Shown here: in pieces, positions 546 to 50,777 of the stretch | How the letters are laid out: every line of letters begins with the position of its first letter | How positions within the stretch are numbered: position 1 is the stretch's first letter | Assembly (NCBI GenBank): GCA_001825155.1 | Contig: MHVH01000005.1 | Span: 70,413 to 134,412 of the forward strand | Source of the DNA: Candidatus Zambryskibacteria bacterium RIFCSPHIGHO2_01_FULL_46_25 | Lineage (GTDB): Bacteria > Patescibacteriota > Minisyncoccia > Phycocordibacterales > Zambryskibacteraceae | Reading direction: 5' to 3' | Length of the DNA: 64,000 nt | Program-made: the position numbers and the translations under genes | Notes under the pieces: model-generated | Seen by the model: only the letters and a program-made list of their open reading frames with translations | What the model was told of the DNA's origin: nothing | Database searches by the model: none

Positions 546-2298
546 TCGACGCTCGTCGTGGAGCAGTTACTCTATCCGGCGGGATGGCGTAATAATTTAT
601 GAGAAATTTTGTCGTGTTGAAGAAGGCGTCGGTCAGCGTTTCGGACGCATACTGCACTTCTTTCGGGTAGTAAGTAAAGAGAAATATCAGAAACTTCGGC
701 TCGTACGACGGGAAGTAACCGAAGAAGGAGTGGAGGAAACGGTCTTGATAGTATCCCCCGCCAGCGGGATTCGCAATTTGCGCCGTGCCGGTCTTCGCCG
801 CGATGCTGTAATTCGGCAAACTCATTTGTCCGTAGCGTAAGCTCGTATCCACCACCTCGGTAAGCATTCTTGAGAGCTCGGCGGAAGATTCTTTGCTTAT
901 CACCCTCTCTCCTTCCTCGGCGGTTGGATAGCCAATCGATTTACTGGGCCCAAGCTTATAGCGCACTTCTCTCGCCAGATGGGGCGTGATAAGTGTGCCG
1001 CCGTTTGCGAGCGCGGAGAAGGCTCTCACGGCCGTAATGGGGGTAAGGGCAATGCCTTGGCCGAATGATGCCTGCGCGGCCTCAAGGTCTCTATGAGTCT
1101 TCAAGTTCGAGACCAGAGACTTACCTTCGTTTGGCAGGTCTATGCCTGTAACACCCTCCAGTCCGAATCGGAGCATGTAGTCTTCGAATTTTCTCGTGCC
1201 CATTCTCGAAACAGCGAAGGCGACTCCGGTATTGAGCGACTGGTTGAGCACCTCCTGCATAGAAATGTTTGTGCCGTGCGATTTGCCGTCGTAATTGCAG
1301 AAGGTCTTGGTGTTCAAGGTCATGCAACCAGGGTCATTGTATGTGGTGCGGGCGGTCACGGCGCCGGCATCGAGGGCGGATGCCATAGTCATAGCTTTCA
1401 CTATCGAACCCATCTCATAACGATCCTCGACCAATTTGTTCCTGAACACGGCGGCGTTACTCTCGTTTTGCGGGAAGTTGGGGTCGAAGGCCGGCGTAAG
1501 AGCCATGGCCCGAATCTCTCCCGTCATGGGGTCTATGACAATACCTCCGGTGAAGTCGGAAGCGTATTGATTGTTTACCTTGGCAATTTCTCCTTCAAGG
1601 AAAGCTTGGACCGAGGGCTCTATGGTCGTCGCGATATCGCCATCAAGCGAAGCTTCGTCATCAACAACCTGTTTTATATTCGAGAATATCTCCGCGAAGA
1701 AATTGATGAAGACGTCATCACCTGCCCTGCTCAAAACTTTCTCATATTGCCTCTCAAGCCCGTAGCGGCCCGAGAGTTCGGCGCCTGTCGGCGCGAAGCC
1801 TACGAGGCCGACAGCGTGAGCGGCCATCTTCTCACCCGGATAAGTACGCCATCTTTCTCTCGTTACCCCCACACCGGGGATGTTGAGAATGCGTATCCTA
1901 TCCGCATTCTCTGCCGTAAGTCGCCGGGCAAGCTCTTCGTAAGGGTCGCTCGTTTTCGCCACCTTGGCGAGATAAATTTCCTTGTCTAGGGGAATGATTG
2001 CGTTCAACTTCTCATACGTTTCCTCAATCGCGTTGTATTCGATAATAATTCCCGGATTGATATAGAGAATGAAGCCGAGCTTGACCGTGGCGGCTGGCAC
2101 CAGGGCCCCATCTTTGGTGGTAAAGAATATTGAGCCCCGGTCAAAGTAGTTTACTCCGGCGACATACTGATGCTCCGCCTTAATCTTGAAATCTTCTCCG
2201 GAAATAATTTGTACCGCGTAGAGCTTGGCAATGAGAAAAAGCGCGAATAGGAGGATTAGTAGAGAAAGCAAACGCAGCCTGTTGGGAAAAGCTTTCAT
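541..2298 (-). CDS. ftsI: Class B penicillin-binding protein (PBP2/FtsI-type transpeptidase)
   Basis: 585 aa with an N-terminal membrane anchor. SXXK (GSIVKAM), SXN (SLNTG) and KTG (KTGTA) motifs are present. It sits in the dcw-cluster position after mraZ-rsmH-ftsL. Confidence 0.8.
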   Translation of the reverse strand: MKAFPNRLRLLSLLILLFALFLIAKLYAVQIISGEDFKIKAEHQYVAGVNYFDRGSIFFTTKDGALVPAATVKLGFILYINPGIIIEYNAIEETYEKLNAIIPLDKEIYLAKVAKTSDPYEELARRLTAENADRIRILNIPGVGVTRERWRTYPGEKMAAHAVGLVGFAPTGAELSGRYGLERQYEKVLSRAGDDVFINFFAEIFSNIKQVVDDEASLDGDIATTIEPSVQAFLEGEIAKVNNQYASDFTGGIVIDPMTGEIRAMALTPAFDPNFPQNESNAAVFRNKLVEDRYEMGSIVKAMTMASALDAGAVTARTTYNDPGCMTLNTKTFCNYDGKSHGTNISMQEVLNQSLNTGVAFAVSRMGTRKFEDYMLRFGLEGVTGIDLPNEGKSLVSNLKTHRDLEAAQASFGQGIALTPITAVRAFSALANGGTLITPHLAREVRYKLGPSKSIGYPTAEEGERVISKESSAELSRMLTEVVDTSLRYGQMSLPNYSIAAKTGTAQIANPAGGGYYQDRFLHSFFGYFPSYEPKFLIFLFTYYPKEVQYASETLTDAFFNTTKFLINYYAIPPDRVTAPRRASI

Positions 2299-2317
2299 GT
2301 CAACTCATTTTAACAGA

Positions 2318-2683
2318 CTAGCGGTTTAAAGTAAGTGAAGATGCCGGCGTACGGGTGACAAAGAGGGGTTCCTTGGCTTCTTTGAAACCTCGTTCGAGCG
2401 CTATTTCGGAAGTAACGGAATTCTTAAGCGAGATGTATGAAAATTCGAGCGAACCTATCTTCGAACCGGCATCGGCGAGATGAGCTTCGAGGTTGCCTCT
2501 AAGAGCGGTGTTTCTGGCAATGGCGTTTACGGCGTAGAAATATATGAAAAGGGATAGCACGGAAACGCTTGCCAAAAACCAGAAGGCCCGCTCCCGGGTA
2601 TCGTATGGCAAGGAGATGCTCCTCCTCCCTTCTCCGAACGGCAGGGCAAGTTGATTCTCGCTGAATTTTATTTTTCTAGTCAT
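2318..2683 (-). CDS. ftsL: FtsL-like small bitopic cell-division protein
   Basis: 121 aa with a single TM (FWFLASVSVLSLFIYFYAV). It occupies the ftsL slot between rsmH and ftsI. Confidence 0.5.
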   Translation of the reverse strand: MTRKIKFSENQLALPFGEGRRSISLPYDTRERAFWFLASVSVLSLFIYFYAVNAIARNTALRGNLEAHLADAGSKIGSLEFSYISLKNSVTSEIALERGFKEAKEPLFVTRTPASSLTLNR

Positions 2684-2684
2684 T

Positions 2685-3554
2685 TTATATTTTTTTGATA
2701 ATCCTTAGTTTCGCGCTTCTGGAACGAGGATTCTCTCTCGTTTCCTCTTCGCTTGGCGTTATTGGTTTTTTAGTAACAAGTTCGGCCTTCCCTTCCTTTC
2801 TATTATCGCGAAAAAAGTTTTTCACCATCCTGTCTTCAAGGCTGTGGAAGGAGATGACCGCGAATCTGCCTCCGGGCTTCAAGGCCTCGAAACCTTTCTC
2901 AAGTCCCTTCTCGAGCGCCGAGAGTTCTTCGTTGACCGCTATGCGCAAGGCTTGGAAGGTCTTTGTCGCTGGATGGATCTTGTCTCGGAAGGTTCTCGGA
3001 CGGACCGAGAGCACAGTGTCTGCGAGGTCGAAAGTCGTGGCGAAGGGTTGGATTTTTCTTCGTGACACAATCGCTCTTGCAATCTTTTTTGAGAATCGCT
3101 CTTCGCCGAATCCTCGCAGGATGAGCTCAATGGCATGCTCATCCCAGGAGTTGAGGATTTCGGCCGCTGTGGGGCCTGACTGTCCCATTCTCATATCGAG
3201 CGGTTCATCTTTCTGGAAACTAAATCCCCGCCCGGAAGTGTCCATCTGGTCGCTCGAGAACCCAAGGTCCAGGAGAATGGCGTCGGGCTTCGTTTCTCCG
3301 AGAAGCTTGTCGATGTCGCGGAAATTACCTGTGATATCCGCTCCAGTCGAGGGGTCTTGATCTATGGTGATAACTTTTACCTTATCGCCGTATCGCCTTA
3401 CTATCTCCCTTGTGTGTCCTCCTCCGCCGAATGTACCGTCGACGAGAGTTTCTCCGGGCTTGAGTGCGAGTCCGTCTACAACTTCTTGCAAAAGAACTGA
3501 CTTATGCGTACTCATTTTCAAGCTTCTTTCTGTAGGCGATCCAGCGCTTGTCAT
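2685..3554 (-). CDS. rsmH: 16S rRNA (cytosine1402-N4)-methyltransferase RsmH (MraW)
   Basis: 289 aa with a GTFGGGGHT SAM-binding motif. It sits in the conserved mraZ-rsmH arrangement. Confidence 0.9.
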   Translation of the reverse strand: MTSAGSPTERSLKMSTHKSVLLQEVVDGLALKPGETLVDGTFGGGGHTREIVRRYGDKVKVITIDQDPSTGADITGNFRDIDKLLGETKPDAILLDLGFSSDQMDTSGRGFSFQKDEPLDMRMGQSGPTAAEILNSWDEHAIELILRGFGEERFSKKIARAIVSRRKIQPFATTFDLADTVLSVRPRTFRDKIHPATKTFQALRIAVNEELSALEKGLEKGFEALKPGGRFAVISFHSLEDRMVKNFFRDNRKEGKAELVTKKPITPSEEETRENPRSRSAKLRIIKKI

Positions 3555-3897
3555 TCCATATCTCCACCCTGTCGTGCACGCCGGTGATGACGATAGAATT
3601 CTTCAACTCCGCGAATTCCCGCAAAAATTCGGGGACGAGAATCCTACCCAAGGAATCAATCTCAACTTCCGCCGCGCCGGCGAAGGTAAACCTGGCGAAG
3701 CGCGGGTCGGTCTCGACGTGTCCTAACTTCTTAACCTCTTGTGAGATTTGAAGCCAGGTCCCGCTGGGATAGAGAAAAAGGCAATGATCTTTGCCTCGAG
3801 TAACAACGACTTTCCTGCCGAGAGCTTTTCGGAATCTCGCTGGAAGAGAGAAACGATTCTTCTCGTCGATATTATGGGTGTATTCGCCAATAAACAT
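3502..3897 (-). CDS. mraZ: Transcriptional regulator MraZ
   Basis: 131 aa opening MFIGEYTHNIDEKNRFSLPARFR..., with the duplicated MraZ fold. It is the first gene of the dcw cluster. Confidence 0.85.
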   Translation of the reverse strand: MFIGEYTHNIDEKNRFSLPARFRKALGRKVVVTRGKDHCLFLYPSGTWLQISQEVKKLGHVETDPRFARFTFAGAAEVEIDSLGRILVPEFLREFAELKNSIVITGVHDRVEIWNDKRWIAYRKKLENEYA

Positions 3898-3904
3898 GTT
3901 TTTT

Positions 3905-4003
3905 TAATCATACCACTTTTTACCACCCCTTAACATTCTATCCCACCCCTCACCACAATACTAGACGGGAAACCCACCATTTCCTTGCAAAACTGTGGAT
4001 AAG
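3905..4003 (-). promoter_or_regulatory. mraZ promoter region with phased GTGG (MraZ-box-like) repeats and a DnaA-box
   Basis: The minus strand has TATGAT ~8 nt before the mraZ ATG. Four GTGG(G) direct repeats follow at 10/20/10 bp spacing. A perfect TTATCCACA DnaA-box consensus lies ~95 nt upstream. Confidence 0.4.
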
Positions 4004-4014
4004 TAAAAATAATG

Positions 4015-4046
4015 AAAAACGCCGGGCCCCGAATGGGTCCCGGCGT
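4015..4046 (-). terminator. Intrinsic terminator after the 4067..4597 gene
   Basis: A GC hairpin, GCCGGG(A)CCC-attc-GGG(G)CCCGGC, followed by TTTTT on the minus strand. Confidence 0.6.
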
Positions 4047-4066
4047 CATATCAGCATTCTCGGCGG

Positions 4067-4597
4067 CTAGGAAGCCTCTTCCTTTGGGAGCTGTGGCTCC
4101 CCGGCGTACACTTTCCAGTCTCTTTTCTTGAGGGTAAGGTGAAGCACATCCTTCACCTTGAGCGCCTCGTCGTAGAGAGAGTAGAAGTTTTCTTGGTATC
4201 CCTGGAAATTACGCCTCAACCTCTCGGAGGTTTCCTCGTACGTCTCATGACGACGGTAAACGTAATCAGAATGCCGTCGGTGGAATGCCTGATGTCCGAG
4301 CTGTTGAAGACTCATCTGCAGCTCCGCCGCGTCCCTTACCTCCCGGGCGTACTCATGGAGCTTCGTCTCGGCACCATCTCTCACGGGCGCGGTCAGATCT
4401 AGCTTGTACCGTACAAACTCAAGAGCTTGCCGGTACTTCCGGCTCAGAAGGTAGTACTTGGCAGCGACATCTCCGGTCGCCACGAAGAGCCCGAACAAGG
4501 TGGACACAATGACCAGCGCCGTAAGGGTGAACCAGGAGCTGAGAAAGTACATTGTTGCCAGAGTAACCAACACGAATTGCAGCAGAAAATTCCTCAT
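4067..4597 (-). CDS. Hypothetical membrane protein (2 N-terminal TM plus a charged cytoplasmic domain)
   Basis: ORF with a hydrophobic N-terminus, followed by a terminator. No family recognised. Confidence 0.45.
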   Translation of the reverse strand: MRNFLLQFVLVTLATMYFLSSWFTLTALVIVSTLFGLFVATGDVAAKYYLLSRKYRQALEFVRYKLDLTAPVRDGAETKLHEYAREVRDAAELQMSLQQLGHQAFHRRHSDYVYRRHETYEETSERLRRNFQGYQENFYSLYDEALKVKDVLHLTLKKRDWKVYAGEPQLPKEEAS

Positions 4598-4794
4598 AGT
4601 GCCGCTTCTCCCGACTCCTTATACAAAACCAGTTAGTCTGGAAATGTGGAAAACGTTAGGCGTTTTCCAAGGAGTTCTGCCGCCAACGATATATTGATTT
4701 TACCAGCTTGTCAATACAAAGCATTTAACATTAAATCTATTTACCAATTCGTGCGAATTTTAATTATTACTATTGTCATTCCGTCTATGTTATT

Positions 4795-4986
4795 ATGAGA
4801 AAGATGAAAAAAGATACTAATAAAGACGGCAGGTATAGAACCAAAAGGGAAGATGTCCTGGTTAGAACCATAGAGAAAAAGTATGGTGTTAATTTGAAAG
4901 TTCGTTCTGATGCCCAACTGCATACAGTACTAAAGAAGTACGGTGCAGCTTCCTTGTCCCAACTTTTAAGAAAGGTTCATGGCTAA
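4795..4986 (+). CDS. Small basic hypothetical protein (63 aa) in an AT-rich islet
   Basis: ORF in a ~35% GC segment. It overlaps the next ORF by 8 nt, which suggests translational coupling. Confidence 0.35.
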   Translation: MRKMKKDTNKDGRYRTKREDVLVRTIEKKYGVNLKVRSDAQLHTVLKKYGAASLSQLLRKVHG

Positions 4987-5512
4987 ACGAGTCTTACTAT
5001 CTAAACATCCGTTTTCAAAAATCAAGAATAAGAGGCTCAGAACTGATTTATATGATGCTTTGTATTTTATTGCTTATTTAATCGAAGGTATTGATAGGGC
5101 TAAGGAAAAAAGATACAAGGAAGAATTTTTAAGAGTAATTATTTTATATATAGCATCGGTTGTAGAAGCCTTATGTTTATTTTTGGTTGAGAGTAATAGT
5201 TTGATACTCAAAAAAGAAGAATGTAGTCATATACGCCAAATATCAATGCCTGGAGTTTCGGTTGAGACAGGGCAACTTGTTATAGCTATACAGAAAGATA
5301 AAGATATCAAAATAAGAGATCTTCCTTTTGCTGAAGCAATTAAGGTTTTATCCAAAAATAGGAAAATTAGTGATACTTTATACGAGAAATTAAACACATT
5401 GAGAACTACTAGAAATACCCAACATCTCTACAGTAGAAAAAATTCCTCAGTTTCTAATGACGACGTAAAGAATGCTTATTCTAGTCTCGATCTACTACTC
5501 AAGCAAATATAA
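4979..5512 (+). CDS. Hypothetical protein with a HEPN-like C-terminal R-x(3-6)-H motif (RTTRNTQHLY)
   Basis: 177 aa, predicted alpha-helical, AT-rich codon usage. It is paired with a small upstream ORF in toxin-antitoxin/Abi-like fashion. The motif call is inference only. Confidence 0.3.
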   Translation: MAKRVLLSKHPFSKIKNKRLRTDLYDALYFIAYLIEGIDRAKEKRYKEEFLRVIILYIASVVEALCLFLVESNSLILKKEECSHIRQISMPGVSVETGQLVIAIQKDKDIKIRDLPFAEAIKVLSKNRKISDTLYEKLNTLRTTRNTQHLYSRKNSSVSNDDVKNAYSSLDLLLKQI

Positions 5513-5537
5513 AACATATCACTGAATGTTAACGAAA

Positions 5538-5566
5538 AACCGCTCATTCCTCCGGATGAGCGGTTC
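5538..5566. terminator. Bidirectional intrinsic terminator between convergent genes
   Basis: A perfect 10-bp stem, AACCGCTCAT-N8-ATGAGCGGTT, between the stop of 4979..5512 (+) and the stop of 5596..6171 (-). Confidence 0.55.
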
Positions 5567-5595
5567 ATATGTTTGCCTCGCGGATTGCGAGGACT

Positions 5596-6171
5596 TTAGA
5601 AGTTGAACCTGGCTCCGATGACTCCCTTGTCGTCGCCGACGGCGTACGTTCCCCAGAACGAGACCTTGCCGAATTTCTTCTCGATATAGGGCCCTGTTCC
5701 GAGAAAACGCGTGCTGTTGACGCCGACGAAGAAGGTCTTCGTGACTTCGAAGGTAGCGAGATGGCGAAACCAGTATCCGCTTCCGCCGTGTTCGTGAATC
5801 GAGAGATAGGACCAGCGCCCTTTCCCGACCCAGAAACTCACCGATCCTCGGAGCGGGTTCTCGTCAGTCTCGATGCCGAGACTGCCCGACAACTCCATCC
5901 ACCCAGCTGGCGCGAACGTGAGTCCAGCATGTCCCTCGCTCCAGCCCTTCGAGCTCAGCGACCAGACCGTCCAGCCAAGCTTGCCCTTGATCGGACCCTT
6001 GGCGTAGATGTCGACCTGGGGAGTCGTGCTGTCGCTGATCGTGTTGTACGACTCGACGAAACCGGTCGTCTGCGCGCTCGCCGTACAGGCGAGCGCGAGG
6101 AGCGAAATGATCGCGGCGAGGACGATGAGGATTTTCACCTCGAGGACCCTGTCTCTGTTGATTTTCTGCAT
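5596..6171 (-). CDS. Secreted beta-barrel-like protein (OmpW/OmpA-like small OMP?) encoded by a high-GC3 foreign-looking gene
   Basis: The start is moved to MQKINRD, which has a GGAGG SD 4 nt upstream; the track's start at 6198 would sit inside the promoter. It has a signal peptide ending ASA-QT, alternating hydrophobic strands, and ends in aromatic ...GARFNF. GC3 is strongly biased, unlike neighbouring genes. Confidence 0.5.
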   Translation of the reverse strand: MQKINRDRVLEVKILIVLAAIISLLALACTASAQTTGFVESYNTISDSTTPQVDIYAKGPIKGKLGWTVWSLSSKGWSEGHAGLTFAPAGWMELSGSLGIETDENPLRGSVSFWVGKGRWSYLSIHEHGGSGYWFRHLATFEVTKTFFVGVNSTRFLGTGPYIEKKFGKVSFWGTYAVGDDKGVIGARFNF

Positions 6172-6207
6172 TGCTCCTCCTTGTGGAGCGAAAAACACTC
6201 TCTTCCT

Positions 6208-6236
6208 ATCTTAGCACAATATGAATATCTTGTCAA
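6208..6236 (-). promoter_or_regulatory. Extended -10 promoter, TTGACAAGAT-N13-TGCTAAGAT family copy 1
   Basis: On the minus strand: TTGACA, 17 bp spacer ending in TGC, then TAAGAT. 22 of 29 positions match the copies at ~18170-18198 and ~18581-18609. Confidence 0.5.
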
Positions 6237-6249
6237 TCCCTGCGGGATT

Positions 6250-6313
6250 GCTTCAGGTTCGCTCGGGCTCTGTGTAAGCAAGCTCCCACATTCCCTCGCT
6301 GCCTGAAGTCAAG
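6250..6313. repeat. 64-nt conserved intergenic element, copy A, immediately 3' of gyrB
   Basis: GCTTCAGGTTCGCTCGGGCTCTGTGTAAGCAAGCTCCCACATTCCCTCGCTGCCTGAAGTCAAG matches 29836..29899 at 61 of 64 positions. Its ends form a CTTCAGG/CCTGAAG inverted repeat. Confidence 0.6.
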
Positions 6314-6321
6314 CACAAGAA

Positions 6322-8289
6322 CTACACATCCAAAACGGCCTTCTTGGCATTTGATTGGATGAAAGATTTGCGGCTGGGCACGTCGGAGCCCATGAGGATG
6401 TCGAAGATGCGGTCCGCTTCGCGGGCGTCCTCCACCTTGACCTGCTTTAGAATCCTTTTTGCCGGGTCCATGGTCGTCTCCCAGAGTTCGTCCGAATTCA
6501 TTTCTCCCAAGCCTTTGTATCGCTGAATATCCCCTGCCTCTTCTTTCCCGACAATCTTTATTTTCTCCTCATCGGAGTAAGCGAAGTACGAATTCTTGCC
6601 CATCTTGATTTTATATAGCGGTGGCTGGGCGATGTAAACATGTCCGGCGTCAATAAGTGGACGGAAGAAGCGGTAAAGCAGGGTAAGAAGAAGGGTGCGG
6701 ATATGCGCGCCGTCAACATCGGCATCAGTGGCAATAATTATCTTGTGGTATCGGAGTTTCGAAATATCAAATGTGTCCCCTATCGCCGTGCCGAAAGCGA
6801 CGACCAGATTTTTGATTTGCTCGGAAGCGAGCATCTTGTCGAGGCGGGCGCGTTCTATATTTAAAATTTTCCCGCGCAAAGGAAGGATGGCTTGTATGCG
6901 ACGATCCCGACCCATCTTGGCCGTGCCACCGGCGGAATCTCCCTCGACAATAAATATTTCCGACTCCTCCGCCGAGCGGCTCTGGCAATCCGCAAGCTTG
7001 CCGGGGAGCGTCATGCCCTCGAGCGCGCCTTTGCGAAGCACGGAGTCCTTGGCGGCTTTGGCGGCCTTCCTCGCTTTCAAGGCTAGAACCACTTTGTTGA
7101 TGATAGATTTCGCGTCGTCCGGATTCTCCTCGAGGAACTGGCTAAAGGCTTCGCCGAAGACGGTCGTAACCATAGCCTGAGCCTCAACGGAACCAAGCTT
7201 CGCCTTGGTCTGACCTTCGAACTGGATTTCGCGCAGTTTGACCGAGAGCACGGCCGTGAGTCCTTCCAGCACGTCGTCGCCGGTGAAATTATCTTCCTTC
7301 TCGCCTACGAGATTATTCTTCCTCGCATAAGTATTAAGAGTGCGGGTAAGAGCCGTTTTGAAGCCGGTAACGTGCGTGCCACCTTCGGCGGTATAGATGT
7401 TATTGGCGAAGGGCAAGAGACGCGATGAGATATCCTCAACGTACTGCAAGGCGACCTCGACCACTTCGTAATCATTGCCGTTCGCCTTCTTTTCAACGTA
7501 GAAAATATTGCGATGCATCGGCTTCAAGTGCTCGTTCTCGAAGCGCACGAGCGAGACGAGCCCGCCCTCGAAATAGAATGAGGTTGAAGGAATGTCGAGA
7601 CCCAATTCTCTTATATAGAAAACATTTTCGTCATCCACTTTCGCTAGATTGCGGGCATCCAGCACCGAGATTCTCAAACCGCGCACGAGGTAGGCCTGCT
7701 GGCGCATGTGAGAGACAATAGTGTCGTAGTTGAAGTTGATGTCCGGGAAGATCTCTTTGTCCGGTTCGAAAGTGATGATGGTACCGGTCTTGTCCGACTT
7801 AGCAATTTTCTTCACAGCACTTTTCTTCTTGCCCTTGCTGTATTCCTGGATATATACGCCGCCATCACGATGCACAACAGCCTTGCAATAAACAGAAAGA
7901 GCGTTGACCACCGAGGCACCGACGCCGTGGAGTCCGCCGGAAATCTTGTAGCCATCGCCGCCGAATTTGCCCCCGGCGTGGAGCGTCGTCATGATAGTCT
8001 CAAGCGCGGAAACCTTCGTCTGTTTGTGAATGTCTACCGGAATGCCTCGACCGTTGTCTACCACACGAACTCTGTTGTTGGGAAGAAGAACGATTTCAAT
8101 GTCATTGGCGAAGCCGCCCATAGCCTCGTCGCGGGAGTTGTCGAAGATTTCCGTAACAAGGTGCTGGAGGCCGTCGGGACCGGTCGTGCCGATGTACATG
8201 CCGGGGCGCTTCCTGACTGGTTCCAAACCTTCTAGGACGGTAATAGATTCAGCGCTATAGCTGCTTGTTTTAGACTTCTTTTCTGCCAT
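6322..8289 (-). CDS. gyrB: DNA gyrase subunit B
   Basis: GHKL ATPase, Toprim and C-terminal domains are all recognisable (e.g. EGDSAGG, PLRGKILN). The start is trimmed to MAEKKSKTSSY...; the track ORF extends upstream to 8364 through a non-homologous leader. Confidence 0.9.
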   Translation of the reverse strand: MAEKKSKTSSYSAESITVLEGLEPVRKRPGMYIGTTGPDGLQHLVTEIFDNSRDEAMGGFANDIEIVLLPNNRVRVVDNGRGIPVDIHKQTKVSALETIMTTLHAGGKFGGDGYKISGGLHGVGASVVNALSVYCKAVVHRDGGVYIQEYSKGKKKSAVKKIAKSDKTGTIITFEPDKEIFPDINFNYDTIVSHMRQQAYLVRGLRISVLDARNLAKVDDENVFYIRELGLDIPSTSFYFEGGLVSLVRFENEHLKPMHRNIFYVEKKANGNDYEVVEVALQYVEDISSRLLPFANNIYTAEGGTHVTGFKTALTRTLNTYARKNNLVGEKEDNFTGDDVLEGLTAVLSVKLREIQFEGQTKAKLGSVEAQAMVTTVFGEAFSQFLEENPDDAKSIINKVVLALKARKAAKAAKDSVLRKGALEGMTLPGKLADCQSRSAEESEIFIVEGDSAGGTAKMGRDRRIQAILPLRGKILNIERARLDKMLASEQIKNLVVAFGTAIGDTFDISKLRYHKIIIATDADVDGAHIRTLLLTLLYRFFRPLIDAGHVYIAQPPLYKIKMGKNSYFAYSDEEKIKIVGKEEAGDIQRYKGLGEMNSDELWETTMDPAKRILKQVKVEDAREADRIFDILMGSDVPSRKSFIQSNAKKAVLDV

Positions 8290-8345
8290 AAATTTATACC
8301 CTATTTTATCATAAACGAGGCTAAAAACCAAGAGATTTGGGGATA

Positions 8346-8525
8346 TGAAAAAGCCCCGCGACAAGCAGCGAGGCCTTGTGATTTGGGGGTTGTTTCCGGA
8401 GAAGGTCCGGCCGAGTCTATGCCCTTTGTGTGGTTTGTCTTTACCGACAATCTTGTCGGCTAGTTTTCCTTGGGGGGCGGTGAGCTCAGCGTTCGTCTAA
8501 GTCCGGAAACAACCCGTTGCGGAAC
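8346..8525 (-). ncRNA. Candidate 6S-like (SsrS-like) small RNA of ~180 nt
   Basis: On the minus strand: TTGCGC, 17 bp spacer, TGC-TATTGT promoter at ~8532-8560. The 5' and 3' ends pair (GGGUUGUUUCCGGA / UCCGGAAACAACCC). There is an apical 7-bp hairpin, CCGACAA-GA-UUGUCGG, and an asymmetric internal region. An intrinsic terminator (GCCTCGC...GCGGGGC then TTTTT) sits ~60 nt before the gyrB start. Class assignment is inference. Confidence 0.3.
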
Positions 8526-8577
8526 CATTCAACAATAGCACCCGCTCAAAACAAGCGCAACTATTGAAAAGCCTTGT

Positions 8578-9759
8578 TTATACCCTTCTCACTTCCGCTT
8601 CGAATTCTTTCTCGGTGCTGGATTCGAGTTCCGCGTGGACTTTATTCACCTCGTCGTTCGTAAGCGTTTTTTCTAAGTGTCTGTAAGTGATGCGGAAGGT
8701 ATATGAAAGTTTATCCGCGCCGAATTTTTCCGCGTTCTCGTACTTATCCAGGAGTTCGACATTCTCGACCATGTCCTTACCCACTTCTCGTATGAGGTCG
8801 AAGTAGTCGTTGGGAACGAAATCTTTCGGCACGACGAAAGAAATGTCGCGCACCACCGGCGGGAATTTGGATACTTCTTTGTAAATTCGACCGAGTTTAA
8901 GTTGATTCTTAACTCGCGGGTCATCGGACCATAGTAAACGGATATCGGGCAGGTCCATAGAAATCATGGCGAAACGTTCTAACCCCGGACCGAAAGCCCA
9001 TCCGTTCCATTTTGACGAATCGACCCCGAGTTTCTCAAGAACGCTTCCTTTTACAACACCCGCGCCGCCAGTTTCAATCCACTGTCCATTTTTATCTGTT
9101 TCCATTTCGATCGATGGATCGGTGTACGGGAATTTATCCTCATTGAATCGCGTTTTTATATCCTTGCCGAAAACGGCCTTGCCGAAGCCAAGTAATGCAT
9201 TCTGGAGATCCTCCACCGTAAGCTTCTGCTTGTTTTTCGGCGCCAGGTACCAGCCGTCAATTTGATGGAAAACATTCATGTGATGCTTGTCGAGTTCATC
9301 CTTGCGATAAACTTTGCCGAATGAAAAGCAACCTACAGGCTCTCCCGCCGCCATTCGTCGTTTAATGTCTTCATTCTGGAGATAGTAGTACCACATTATC
9401 GTCGTGTGCGTACGCAGGATATGATTGTCATCAACGTAATATGTATCCGATTTCGATCTGACGGGGTGATCTGCCGGGAAGTCGAATAAATCGAATGTAA
9501 TCTCCGTAGAAACAATTTCGGGCACTTCGATTATGTCGAAACCTTTGAATTCCGTCGCGGCTAAAACTCTCTGAACTATTTCATGTATAGGGTTTCCGAC
9601 AGTCCGCGAGAGGTCTGGCATAGCCAAATAGCGCTTAATCCTCTCTGCTTCGGCGTCATGCCTCAGCTCAAGCTTCGTCTTAAGCTCCTTTTCTTCCGGT
9701 GATTCTATCTTGATATTCATAGCGGAATTATACGATAAAGCTTGAAAATGTCTAAACAT
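8578..9759 (-). CDS. Single-chain (mitochondrial-type, FARS2-like) phenylalanine--tRNA ligase: PheS catalytic core fused to a C-terminal FDX-ACB anticodon-binding domain
   Basis: Class II aaRS motifs are present (HPVRSKSDTYY, RTHTT, FGKVYRKDELDKHHMNVFHQIDG, GWAFGPGLERFAM). The C-terminus reads ...DISFVVPKDF...YFDLIREVGKDMVENVELLDKY...FRITYRHLEKTLTNDEVNKVHAEL, matching the FARS2 FDX-ACB domain almost motif for motif. An alternative start is MNIKIE at 9720. Confidence 0.8.
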   Translation of the reverse strand: MFRHFQALSYNSAMNIKIESPEEKELKTKLELRHDAEAERIKRYLAMPDLSRTVGNPIHEIVQRVLAATEFKGFDIIEVPEIVSTEITFDLFDFPADHPVRSKSDTYYVDDNHILRTHTTIMWYYYLQNEDIKRRMAAGEPVGCFSFGKVYRKDELDKHHMNVFHQIDGWYLAPKNKQKLTVEDLQNALLGFGKAVFGKDIKTRFNEDKFPYTDPSIEMETDKNGQWIETGGAGVVKGSVLEKLGVDSSKWNGWAFGPGLERFAMISMDLPDIRLLWSDDPRVKNQLKLGRIYKEVSKFPPVVRDISFVVPKDFVPNDYFDLIREVGKDMVENVELLDKYENAEKFGADKLSYTFRITYRHLEKTLTNDEVNKVHAELESSTEKEFEAEVRRV

Positions 9760-9785: not shown

Positions 9786-11033
9786 ATGCCAGACATACAG
9801 GCTATTATTCTATATTGCTCACTCTTCGTATCCTTGTTTTTCGAAGTATTTCTTCTCATCACTTATATCGAAGTGAGGGGTGAGATTAAGGAGGAGGAGA
9901 AGCGGGACTTAAGGGGTATTACGGTATTTCCAAGCACTACTATCATAGTCCCTTGCTACAACGAGGAGAAGACGGTAGCGGCTACGGTCAAATCTATTTT
10001 GAACCTCGATTATCCCAAGGATAAGCTCTCCCTAATTCTTGTTGACGACGGCTCAAGGGACGGGACTCTGGCGGCTTTGCGGAAGTTCAAAAATCATCCA
10101 CAAGTAAAAATTCTTGCGAAAGAAAATGGCGGTAAGCACACAGCCGTAAACATGGCCTTGCAATCGGTTACGACTGACCTCGTCGGCTGCCTCGACGCGG
10201 ACTCCTTCGTAACTCCGGAGGCATTGAGGAAAATTATCCCCTACTTCGATGATCTTACTACTATGGCTGTCACTCCAGCCATCAAGATTCACGAACCATT
10301 GGGTGTGCTGCAACATATTCAAAATGTCGAATACAGCTGGTCGATTTTTCTGAGGAAAATGCTCTCAATGCTCGGCGCTCTCTACGTCACTCCGGGACCG
10401 TTCTCTATTTTCCGAACAAGAGTTTTCCGTGAGCTCGGCGATTACAAGAAGGCGCATATGACCGAGGATATGGAGATGGCTATGCGCATGCAGAAGCATC
10501 ATTACAAAATCGTCAATTCCCACGGCGCCCACGTTTATACCGTGGCACCAAGGACCCTCAAGGGACTCGTCAAACAGCGTACCCGCTGGTCGTACGGTTT
10601 CCTCAACAATGCCATCGACTACAAGGCACTCTTCTTCAACAGGAAATATGGGCACTTCGGCATGTTCATTATGCCAATTGCCACCCTCTCTCTCTTCACC
10701 TCCTTTGTCATGGTTGGGCGCATTGTGTCATCGGCGGGTTCGAGTCTGCTACACAGCTACACTCGTTTCCGTGCCATTGGCTTCGCCGGAGAATTCCACC
10801 TCCCTCCTCTCGACTGGTACTTCATCAACACAGGTGTGTTACCTATAGTGGTCATAACGGCCCTTAGCCTGACTTTCATTATCCTCTTCCTGTCTATCAG
10901 GCTTGCCGAAGGGCGCTTCAGATTCTCCAAAGGTCTTTTCTACTACCTTTTTCTCTACGCTTTCATGGCCCCCCTGTGGCTTACCCAAGCCATCTTTAAC
11001 ACGGTGTTTAAGCGTAAAGTATCTTGGCGCTAA
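9786..11033 (+). CDS. Processive family-2 glycosyltransferase (CesA/NodC/PgaC-like, membrane-embedded)
   Basis: 415 aa with a GT-A fold (VPCYNEE, DDGSRDGT, DADS). It carries a Q(Q/R)xRW motif (QRTRWSYG) and flanking TM helices. Confidence 0.8.
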   Translation: MPDIQAIILYCSLFVSLFFEVFLLITYIEVRGEIKEEEKRDLRGITVFPSTTIIVPCYNEEKTVAATVKSILNLDYPKDKLSLILVDDGSRDGTLAALRKFKNHPQVKILAKENGGKHTAVNMALQSVTTDLVGCLDADSFVTPEALRKIIPYFDDLTTMAVTPAIKIHEPLGVLQHIQNVEYSWSIFLRKMLSMLGALYVTPGPFSIFRTRVFRELGDYKKAHMTEDMEMAMRMQKHHYKIVNSHGAHVYTVAPRTLKGLVKQRTRWSYGFLNNAIDYKALFFNRKYGHFGMFIMPIATLSLFTSFVMVGRIVSSAGSSLLHSYTRFRAIGFAGEFHLPPLDWYFINTGVLPIVVITALSLTFIILFLSIRLAEGRFRFSKGLFYYLFLYAFMAPLWLTQAIFNTVFKRKVSWR

Positions 11034-48733: not shown

Positions 48734-50017
48734 TTATAAACTACAACTCTTCGTCGAAGTTCCACCCTTCTCATTACGGAAGATACAAAGAAATTGATTA
48801 ACATGAGCATTATAAGAACTCATGAAATCTATTTGGTCAGGAGATAAACCGCGATTCTCTTCCATAATTTTTACTACCTCCTTTAACTGAAAGAGTATTG
48901 AATCTAAAACCATTAAGGATTTAGAGAAATTTGGATTAGTGGCTACAAGTGAAATGTGTTCGGTATAAATATCCTCCATCTCTTTCAATGCTTCTTGCCA
49001 TGATGTCAGTACTTCCGACTTATATTTCGGTAGCTTATCCTTATATGCTTGAACTTTCTCATCATAATCATCCATAAATTGCCTCTCTTCAATAGAAAGG
49101 TCGTTGTTTTTCTCCATTGCCACAAGTATGGATTTTAATTGAAAGTGTATGGAATCTAAGGCTGAAATTGATTCGGTAAAATCAGTCCCTCTAACTTTAA
49201 GTGATGCTTGCGATGTCTCCACATCTTTTAGTGCGACTTGCCACGAGGCCAATACCTCAGGCGTATATTTTGGTAATTTCTCATTTAAATAAACACCGAC
49301 AGAAATGAATAATATTACTATTAATACGAAAACACTCATTTCTTTTTTAGGTGTTTTTGTATCTTTCTTGAAAACAATGTAAATCAAAACTAATGCCAGA
49401 ACCCACGTAATAGAAAAACTAAAAATAGTTCCCCAATCATCCCAATGTATTACTGATAGGTTGAAAATAGCATGAAAAACAATTGCCAAAGTAAGTGCAA
49501 GAGTTGTAATAACGACACGCTTTCTTACAGATTTGTAAAATGAGAATGCTAAGGCGACTCCGATAATGCTACTTGCAACTACGTGTAAGAGACTTGCCCC
49601 AATAAAGCGTAAATTACCAGTGATAACGCTTCGAGTGGTATCTTCTCCAATAAGCGGTCCGACGACATAGAGAACATTTTCTAAAGCGGCAAAACCAAGT
49701 GCCGCTACTATCATATAAATTAGTGTCTTTGCCCTATCAATTTTAAGGAACTTAATAGCACATAAGACTACAGACAACTTAATAACTTCCTCCACAGTAG
49801 CCCATAAGAAAAGGACGATTGGTGGTGAGCCTGGGATAAATATGCTAAATGCTTTCTGAAATGGGAGAGCGAATAATACTGCAATAGCTCCACCCACAAA
49901 GACAAATATTGCGGACTTATTATCAAGACTCTGTTTTCTCGTCCAAAACCATACCCATATCAGTATGGAAATTGAACTTGCTACGACTGCGATGGAAATT
50001 GGATAAGCTAACTGCAT
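48734..50017 (-). CDS. PrsW-family intramembrane protease-like protein with two ~75-aa tandem extracytoplasmic repeats
   Basis: EExxK (VEEVIKL), FAALEN and HVVxS/HAIFN motifs sit in TM helices. The C-terminus has duplicated LPKYxxEVLxSWQxALK...LDSIxFQLK units. Confidence 0.5.
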   Translation of the reverse strand: MQLAYPISIAVVASSISILIWVWFWTRKQSLDNKSAIFVFVGGAIAVLFALPFQKAFSIFIPGSPPIVLFLWATVEEVIKLSVVLCAIKFLKIDRAKTLIYMIVAALGFAALENVLYVVGPLIGEDTTRSVITGNLRFIGASLLHVVASSIIGVALAFSFYKSVRKRVVITTLALTLAIVFHAIFNLSVIHWDDWGTIFSFSITWVLALVLIYIVFKKDTKTPKKEMSVFVLIVILFISVGVYLNEKLPKYTPEVLASWQVALKDVETSQASLKVRGTDFTESISALDSIHFQLKSILVAMEKNNDLSIEERQFMDDYDEKVQAYKDKLPKYKSEVLTSWQEALKEMEDIYTEHISLVATNPNFSKSLMVLDSILFQLKEVVKIMEENRGLSPDQIDFMSSYNAHVNQFLCIFRNEKGGTSTKSCSL

Positions 50018-50517: not shown

Positions 50518-50611
50518 AATAAAACTCACATCATTTTCAGAGAATTTTTCTCGCGCGGCGCGGAGCGCCGCGCGCCAGAATTTTAGTCCTGACGAAGTAA
50601 GTCACATTCGG

Positions 50612-50682
50612 GCTGCCGGACTTGGACTCGAACCAAGATACTCGCCTCCAGAGGGCGATGTCCTACCATTAGACGATCCGGC
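50612..50682 (-). tRNA. tRNA-Gln (anticodon CTG)
   Basis: Minus strand TGCCGGA-TC-GTCT-AATGGTA-GGAC-A-TCGCC-CTCTGGA-GGCGA-GTAT-CTTGG-TTCGAGT-CCAAG-TCCGGCA-G, with a U1-A72 pair as in bacterial tRNA-Gln. Confidence 0.8.
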
Positions 50683-50777
50683 AATACGGGCTCAGATTAC
50701 ATTAAAAATCGGTTGTTTTCAATACATAGATTAAGAAAAGGGCCGTCGCTACGGCCCCTTTCGGGAATTCTTTTGAT

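Follow-up and report, generated by a model that had tools for sequence, protein, structure and literature searches.

The single-chain PheRS gene and its architecture

The stretch of DNA considered here, in the following referred to as the window, comprises 64,000 nucleotides (nt) of contig MHVH01000005.1 (positions 70,413 to 134,412) from the parcubacterium Candidatus Zambryskibacteria bacterium RIFCSPHIGHO2_01_FULL_46_25, and it contains on its minus strand a gene for a phenylalanyl-tRNA synthetase (PheRS) in which a PheS-type catalytic core and a PheT-type anticodon-binding domain reside on one polypeptide chain (Table 1). In the reviews three forms of PheRS are distinguished, namely a bacterial α2β2 enzyme, an archaeal/eukaryotic α2β2 enzyme and a monomer that is confined to organelles (PMC7373986, PMC9976931, PMC3275996). 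The protein encoded in the window is a bacterial member of this already known one-chain, mitochondrial-type kind of enzyme.

With respect to its domains, the 393-amino-acid (aa) reading of the gene matches the Pfam families tRNA-synt_2d (PF01409) at residues 56-286 (E = 4e-56) and FDX-ACB (PF03147) at residues 297-391 (E = 6e-24), as was to be expected from an earlier note on this DNA that had claimed a C-terminal FDX-ACB domain. The C-terminal domain corresponds to positions 692-798 of the pheT_bact model, and a hidden Markov model (HMM) of five PheT sequences matches the protein at HMM positions 696-794 only; with this HMM, the 380-aa protein showed no match to any of the β-subunit domains B1 to B7, and hence none to the B3/B4 editing domain. 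At the N-terminus, alignment with E. coli PheS reveals that residues 1-42 replace the coiled coil of about 85-100 aa found in canonical PheS. The fusion point is common to the enzymes of the candidate phyla radiation (CPR) and to those of organelles; in both, the entire PheS core with its C-terminal tail is followed by a short linker and then by B8.

The best matches among sequences with solved structures are to human mitochondrial PheRS (mtPheRS; 3cmq, 8p8x and others; E about 4e-58, phmmer against the Protein Data Bank). In the same comparison, bacterial PheS α chains match only the first approximately 285 residues (E from 1e-40 to 1e-23), and PheT β chains only the last approximately 100. 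A model predicted by AlphaFold2 from the family alignment (predicted local distance difference test 93, predicted template modelling score 0.89) was compared with solved structures by Foldseek, yielding template modelling (TM) scores of 0.77-0.78 with closed apo human mtPheRS (3cmq, 5mgh; root-mean-square deviation about 3 Å, about 391 columns) and of 0.59 with the open, tRNA-bound form (3tup), while bacterial PheS aligns with the catalytic half of the model only. In human mtPheRS the anticodon-binding domain rests on the catalytic core in the closed state and swings out for tRNA in the open state. Domain scans, matches to solved structures, the predicted whole-chain fold and the bacterial context thus bear out the claim of the earlier note that a single-chain, FARS2-like PheRS is encoded in a bacterial genome. 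The three sequence blocks that it had quoted do align with human FARS2 as stated (phmmer against 8p8x and 3cmq), and no pheT adjoins the gene, which is flanked by gyrB and by a gene for a GT2 glycosyltransferase.

In comparison with the organellar enzymes (human FARS2, yeast MSF1, family model TIGR00469), the CPR protein shares the order of PheS core and FDX-ACB with the same junction, the lack of B1 to B7 and hence of an editing domain, the class II motifs together with the Ala of the Phe pocket, and, in the predicted whole-chain fold, the closed human form. It differs from them in being encoded in a bacterial genome without a targeting peptide, whereas the organellar enzymes are nuclear-encoded and targeted to the organelle, in lacking a eukaryotic insertion of about 25 residues between motifs 2 and 3, and in having an insertion of its own of about eight residues before motif 2; with the eukaryotic members it is only about 36% identical, and it belongs to a separate clade. 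With the canonical bacterial (αβ)2 enzyme (E. coli; Thermus thermophilus, 1pys) it has in common a core homologous to PheS, a C-terminus homologous to B8 of PheT and, presumably, the same chemistry and the same tRNA. In contrast to the canonical enzyme, it is encoded by one gene instead of by pheS and a pheT that normally follows it directly, and it has neither the coiled coil of PheS nor B1 to B7 of PheT, including the B3/B4 editing domain and the B2 OB-fold.

Although the open reading frame (ORF) extends to a first ATG that would yield 393 aa, the real start is, as judged by comparison with related loci, almost certainly the second ATG (Met14 of the longer reading), because the closest relatives (L001 and L002) share this codon but have no upstream ATG, and because the public gene call comprises 380 aa and homologues align from Met14 onwards. 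The protein is 100% identical to "hypothetical protein UY47_C0005G0033" (P0001) from Parcubacteria group bacterium GW2011_GWB1_49_7. In the region 9721-9740 (minus strand), a TATAAT box lies 6 nt 5' of the true ATG, and it is kept in L002 and deleted in L001. Between this box and the ATG no obvious Shine-Dalgarno sequence was seen. Judging from its position, the box may serve as the -10 element, and the PheRS mRNA may then be leaderless or nearly so.

Table 1. Features of the single-chain PheRS gene, of its surroundings and of other segments of the window
Feature	Position	Strand	Extent	Basis or remark
Single-chain PheRS gene	8578..9720	minus	380 aa + stop	ORF list, 100% protein match, start by comparison with L001/L002
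ORF from first ATG	8578..9759	minus	393 aa	ORF listing
Short N-terminal helical region	9595..9720	minus	residues 1-42 of 380 aa	model helices 8-19, 23-33
Class IIc catalytic core	8902..9594	minus	residues 43-273	PF01409, family conservation, pocket comparison
Linker (fusion junction)	8872..8901	minus	residues 274-283	alignment of P0001, human FARS2, E. coli PheS and E. coli PheT B8
FDX-ACB (PheT B8-like) anticodon-binding domain	8587..8871	minus	residues 284-378	PF03147
TATAAT box	9727..9732	minus		5' of the true ATG
PheRS stop-gyrB spacer	8365..8577	minus	213 nt	stable predicted fold
gyrB	6322..8364	minus		downstream of the PheRS gene
GT2 glycosyltransferase gene	9786..11033			upstream of the PheRS gene, divergent
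Low-GC segment	48001..50000			GC 0.36
PrsW-family protease gene	48734..50017			covered by the low-GC region
tRNA-Gln	50610..50684			adjoins the low-GC region

The active site

The window PheRS contains all three class II motifs together with the residues of the Phe pocket, the elements of its catalytic core being HPxR, LRTHTT, GKVYR...FHQID (motif 2), FPYTDPS (Phe pocket) and GWAFGPGLER (motif 3). In 114 and 56 members of the family these elements are invariant or nearly so in the form HPxR, LRTHTT, GKVYR...FHQ-D, FP(F/Y)T-PS and GWAFG-G-ER. In particular, the Ala of GWAFG in motif 3 is conserved in the CPR members, and this is the residue which sets the specificity for Phe over Tyr in E. coli PheRS. 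The window PheRS would be specific for Phe. As a B3/B4 editing domain is missing, discrimination against Tyr must rest on the active site.

Distribution and synteny in the CPR

A homologue scan with one genome per species of the GTDB detected a relative in at least 160 species, from which 80 loci were kept, all of them from Patescibacteria of the Parcubacteria type. The 120 best database matches have the same two domains throughout and are 66-83% identical to the window PheRS; their named sources are Zambryski-, Yanofsky- and Liptonbacteria, Paceibacterota and Minisyncoccia. In the public databases the single-chain proteins are labelled either "hypothetical protein" or "phenylalanyl-tRNA synthetase alpha chain".

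The PheRS gene has gyrB in its vicinity at 52 of the 80 loci, mostly in the same orientation and directly downstream as in the window, and in some loci of the Nomurabacteria type gyrB lies upstream on the opposite strand. Over the same genome pairs, the mean identity is 64.6% for the single-chain PheRS and 67.8% for GyrB. This synteny and the GyrB-like degree of conservation point to a core gene that is passed on vertically.

The nearest outgroup sequence, P0127, is likewise found in a bacterial context, adjoining an F-type ATP synthase operon, and its relatives, which have the same two-domain architecture, are labelled either as Candidatus Gracilibacteria or as "uncultured bacterium (gcode 4)". 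Therefore, at least two major lineages of the CPR use a one-chain PheRS, and in Parcubacteria and Gracilibacteria it is a trait of the whole lineage and not an oddity of one genome. In the translations of P0127, P0303 and other gracilibacterial sequences, Trp is found at invariant Gly positions (GKVYR to WKVYR, GxGxER to GFWIER); these residues evidently represent UGA codons that gene callers read as Trp where the lineage decodes Gly (genetic code 25).

The window stems from a metagenome-assembled genome, and a gene of the mitochondrial type in a bacterium is typical of contamination, so that eukaryotic contamination, a chimeric assembly or mis-binning has to be considered. However, the same gene lies beside gyrB in 52 independently assembled contigs of Parcubacteria, it is found on contigs of up to 464 kb, its surroundings are in line with the GC content of the window, its neighbours are bacterial (the other genes of the window, e.g., those coding for a penicillin-binding protein transpeptidase, GroEL, RNase J and CTP synthase, are ordinary bacterial ones), and its phylogeny sets it apart from eukaryotes. 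An artefact of this kind is thus extremely improbable, and the contaminant or chimera that the earlier note had allowed for was rejected on account of the conserved synteny in the 52 assemblies.

Search for a second PheRS

Searches for a further PheRS covered the window and the 80 loci, together 1.25 Mb, and made use of tblastn with E. coli PheS and PheT (L081) as well as of PheS and PheT HMMs, derived from five canonical pairs (E. coli, Acinetobacter, Staphylococcus, a record labelled Pseudomonas and a Ruminococcus phage) and run against the six-frame ORFs. Every locus, including the window, has exactly one PheS-like gene, and this is the single-chain gene. Matches to PheT were confined to the FDX-ACB end of the single-chain genes and to a separate B2-type gene at 12 loci. 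Nothing else in the 64-kb window was matched by the PheT HMM, and in the entire 1.25 Mb neither B1, B3/B4 editing or B5 domains nor a second PheS could be found. This lack of pheST in the 1.25 Mb is consistent with its loss, and it agrees with the suggestion of the earlier note that the gene could be the sole PheRS of a reduced genome.

The additional gene at 12 of the 80 loci (L019, L036, L039, L044, L047, L051, L054, L056, L064, L073, L075 and L078), which is absent from the window, codes for 130-148 aa and immediately precedes the single-chain PheRS gene on the same strand (e.g., L039 9556-9969). It encodes a tRNA-binding OB-fold resembling B2 of PheT (PF01588, E = 6e-17), reaches 91 bits on the YtpR model, the cutoff of which is 100, and aligns with positions 35-152 of pheT_bact. 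Its product could be a tRNA-binding partner acting in trans or a remnant of a lost β subunit.

Of the five canonical pairs, that of Ruminococcus phage NatCom_28775 (PV036440.1; L090 3180-6613) consists of adjacent pheS and pheT genes for 350 and 788 aa in a phage genome of 79.5 kb that was deposited as complete, where both are annotated only as hypothetical proteins. The pair looks like a full αβ PheRS encoded by a phage.

Comparison with SrmL

The only curated prokaryotic family found to have the architecture of a PheS core plus FDX-ACB is SrmL (NF051887, "PheS-related mystery ligase"), which shares the two-domain single chain with the window PheRS and forms a neighbouring branch in the tree (see below). 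With this NCBIfam model, the curators noticed a related prokaryotic family and assigned no function to it. A full-text literature search, with subscription-only papers lying outside it, yielded no description of a single-chain PheRS from bacteria or the CPR and no occurrence of "SrmL".

Amongst the representatives examined, P0192 and P0222 are true members of SrmL, scoring 402 and 376 bits, respectively, and in the tree they are grouped with a protein encoded by LR745206 (LR745206.1; L091 5983-7068), an uncultured phage of 635 kb. In the pocket of true SrmL proteins, the His of HPxR is lost, FPF is changed to HPY or HYY and AFG to ALG or AMG, whereas the window PheRS keeps DHPVR, FPYTDPS and GWAFG. 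The CPR proteins keep the residues of PheRS, so that the window protein ranks as a neighbour and not as a member of SrmL. SrmL looks like a re-purposed offshoot, and its altered pocket, together with its genomic neighbours and its occurrence in a huge phage, suggests a different, non-housekeeping role. Downstream of the P0192 gene (in L092, region 605-9741) lie genes for two unknown proteins of about 740 aa, for a reverse transcriptase (RVT_1) and for a PLD-like protein, and these surroundings look like a defence or retroelement context.

Against this background, the window gene might also be an accessory paralog, i.e., a ligase derived from PheS that, in the manner of SrmL, has a different substrate or role, residing in the genome beside an ordinary pheS-pheT pair. 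Its score on the SrmL model, 237.4 bits, is about as high as that on the pheS_mito model, true SrmL proteins branch next to it, and the search for pheST covered 1.25 Mb and not whole genomes. On the other hand, the score lies below the SrmL cutoff of 300, the CPR proteins retain precisely those pocket residues that are changed in true SrmL, no canonical pheS or pheT occurs in the 1.25 Mb, and the conserved linkage to gyrB together with GyrB-like conservation contrasts with the reverse transcriptase and the PLD-like protein found beside SrmL. We therefore regard an accessory role as quite improbable.

Viral relatives and phylogeny

One-chain forms of PheRS that are similar in having two domains in 337-367 aa and no targeting peptide, several of which pass the pheS_mito cutoff, reside on viral-type contigs of 160-635 kb, and in contrast to the window PheRS most of them group with the clade containing the eukaryotes and not with the CPR. 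All four of the short, pheS_mito-passing forms whose surroundings were inspected (P0177 in L084, P0173 in L085, P0159 in L093 and P0203 in L094) have a viral-type context. P0177 is located on a contig of 494 kb and P0173 on one of 160 kb, with terminase, ClpP, T4 RNA ligase and another aminoacyl-tRNA synthetase nearby, and the remaining two (L093 and L094) comprise one gene set resembling those of giant viruses (nucleocytoplasmic large DNA viruses) and one phage-like contig. Further neighbours of the viral genes are PNKP, PTH2, NAD-dependent DNA ligase, Kelch repeats and RRF. Given these contexts, which resemble those of huge phages and giant viruses, large viruses therefore carry the one-chain form as well.

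An exhaustive HMMER search of 1.84 billion representatives resulted in 234 clusters at E ≤ 1e-30 only, and the single-chain family is therefore compact. Its phylogeny was reconstructed as a rooted neighbour-joining tree from 227 columns of the catalytic core (Scoredist distances, five canonical PheS outgroups, 100 bootstraps), which as a distance tree is weak at its deep nodes. It replaced a first tree with one outgroup and Kimura distances, the backbone of which was unresolved. Representatives with a catalytic core only had been considered as canonical PheS but were rejected as such, as they fell inside the single-chain cluster and are probably truncated gene models. A tree of FDX-ACB alone against B8 of PheT (96 columns) gave no resolution, the single-chain domains being separated from B8 at 51%.

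All single-chain enzymes are monophyletic with respect to canonical PheS (bootstrap 100%). Within them, Parcubacteria and Gracilibacteria each form a clade (100% in both cases), and together with Oligoflexia-like sequences, of which P0123 sits in an ordinary bacterial context, they are united at 91%. The next node, which adds the trio of SrmL and huge-phage proteins, is found in 40% of the replicates. Human FARS2, Vitrella, a chytrid and the short viral forms make up another clade (75%). The clade of CPR and Oligoflexia-like sequences lies outside of this eukaryote-containing clade, and the eukaryotes, likewise, are not nested within the CPR. As the CPR are not nested among eukaryotes, a recent transfer from eukaryotes to bacteria is therefore unlikely; since neither group is nested in the other, the tree is compatible with an ancient transfer in either direction. 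The suggestion of the earlier note that the gene might be a relative of the lineage which gave rise to the organellar enzyme hence fits the tree, in which the CPR are sister to the eukaryote-containing clade.

One such ancient transfer would have brought a eukaryotic nuclear gene for mtPheRS, possibly by way of a giant virus or huge phage, into an early ancestor of the CPR, where it displaced pheST. The single-chain type is universal in eukaryotes, the contigs of huge phages and giant viruses with related genes offer possible vectors, and the deep branches are weak (40% for CPR plus the SrmL/phage trio), as is the tree of FDX-ACB. However, the clade of CPR and Oligoflexia-like sequences is placed outside of the eukaryote-containing one in the presence of five PheS outgroups, the insertion that eukaryotic enzymes have between motifs 2 and 3 is missing from the CPR proteins, and Parcubacteria and Gracilibacteria, with 45% identity, are separated nearly as deeply as are the CPR and eukaryotes with 36%, which makes this course of events unlikely. 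It would alter the history of the gene only, as its function is the same in either case.

The common fusion point and the 100% monophyly, taken together, speak for the fusion having arisen only once. It would result from a deletion, in an ancestral pheS-pheT operon, of the segment from the stop codon of pheS to the start of B8. By a further-reaching scenario, which is possible but in our view rather doubtful, the one-chain PheRS arose once in bacteria from pheS and the last domain of pheT and became standard in large parts of the CPR, which would carry the ancestral form, and all mitochondrial PheRS would descend from this non-alphaproteobacterial line, possibly via a large phage. The mitochondrial RNA polymerase, DNA polymerase gamma and Twinkle, which are derived from phages, provide a parallel to such an origin.

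Other features of the window

The spacer that separates the stop codon of the PheRS gene from gyrB has an unusually stable predicted fold (-75.4 kcal/mol, z = -3.9), in which a hairpin follows the stop codon directly and a 14-bp stem (GGUUGUUUCCGGA / UCCGGAAACAACC) closes a multibranch structure. An Rfam scan of this spacer gave no credible match, and in close relatives the corresponding spacer measures about 60-150 nt. It may be a strain-specific leader of gyrB or a terminator element.

At some distance, the GC content drops to 0.36 in the low-GC segment of Table 1, compared to about 0.45-0.52 elsewhere in the window. The segment covers the gene for a PrsW-family protease and an ORF of 162 aa and adjoins tRNA-Gln, and it may have been acquired horizontally.

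Proposed function and implications

With regard to its role, we consider it likely that the gene in the window is the housekeeping PheRS of Parcubacteria, in a one-chain form that has been known until now from mitochondria and plastids. Its class IIc core would activate Phe with ATP and transfer it to tRNA-Phe, and the B8-like ferredoxin-fold domain would read the GAA anticodon. Like its human mitochondrial counterpart, the enzyme would act as a monomer, the anticodon-binding domain of which would swing from the closed to the open position upon binding of tRNA. Editing would not take place in the cell, and the gene would be the only one for PheRS in the genome. In Parcubacteria the one-chain enzyme would be inherited vertically, having most likely replaced an ancestral α2β2 enzyme. 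In the plastids of diatoms, the monomer type has repeatedly replaced the αβ PheRS after loss of syfB, the gene for the β subunit (PMC4494062, PMC3971590).

A number of observations weigh against a housekeeping PheRS of this kind. Two positions of the pocket are unlike those in the E. coli and human enzymes (FPF to FPY and FHQxE to FHQxD), although both changes are conservative. The score on TIGR00469 (pheS_mito), a model built from eukaryotic sequences, is 244.7 and thus just below the curated cutoff of 258.35, and that on the bacterial pheS model TIGR00468 is 159.4 and thus well below its cutoff of 237.45. The sample comprised 64 kb of the window genome and about 16 kb of each related genome, and as a randomly placed pheT would by estimate be expected only about 1.6 times in 1.25 Mb, its lack is weak evidence. 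Amongst the 117 tRNA genes that ARAGORN predicts in the window and the 80 loci there is no tRNA-Phe in which identity elements could be looked up. Finally, Mukai et al. mention β subunits of PheRS in some CPR lineages (PMC5370408), and the one-chain trait is therefore not universal in the CPR.

For genome surveys, if the one-chain enzyme is the sole PheRS of its lineages, marker sets that expect both pheS and pheT (TIGR00468 and TIGR00472) would miss the one-chain gene, because its product scores below the pheS cutoff, and would thereby understate the completeness of such genomes. Both models belong to the bac120 marker set of the GTDB. FARS2 is a human disease gene, and a bacterial monomer of about 380 aa would, on the same premise, offer a compact, soluble model for it as well as a candidate scaffold for an orthogonal PheRS.

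The chimeric mitochondrial enzyme, whose origin has long been unexplained, gains relatives in bacteria and phages, and its history thus becomes testable by phylogeny. If Parcubacteria and Gracilibacteria have no PheRS other than the one-chain enzyme, a considerable share of bacterial diversity would decode Phe with a minimal, editing-free synthetase, which would fit the reductive biology of the CPR and would raise the question of mischarging with Tyr and meta-Tyr in these organisms.

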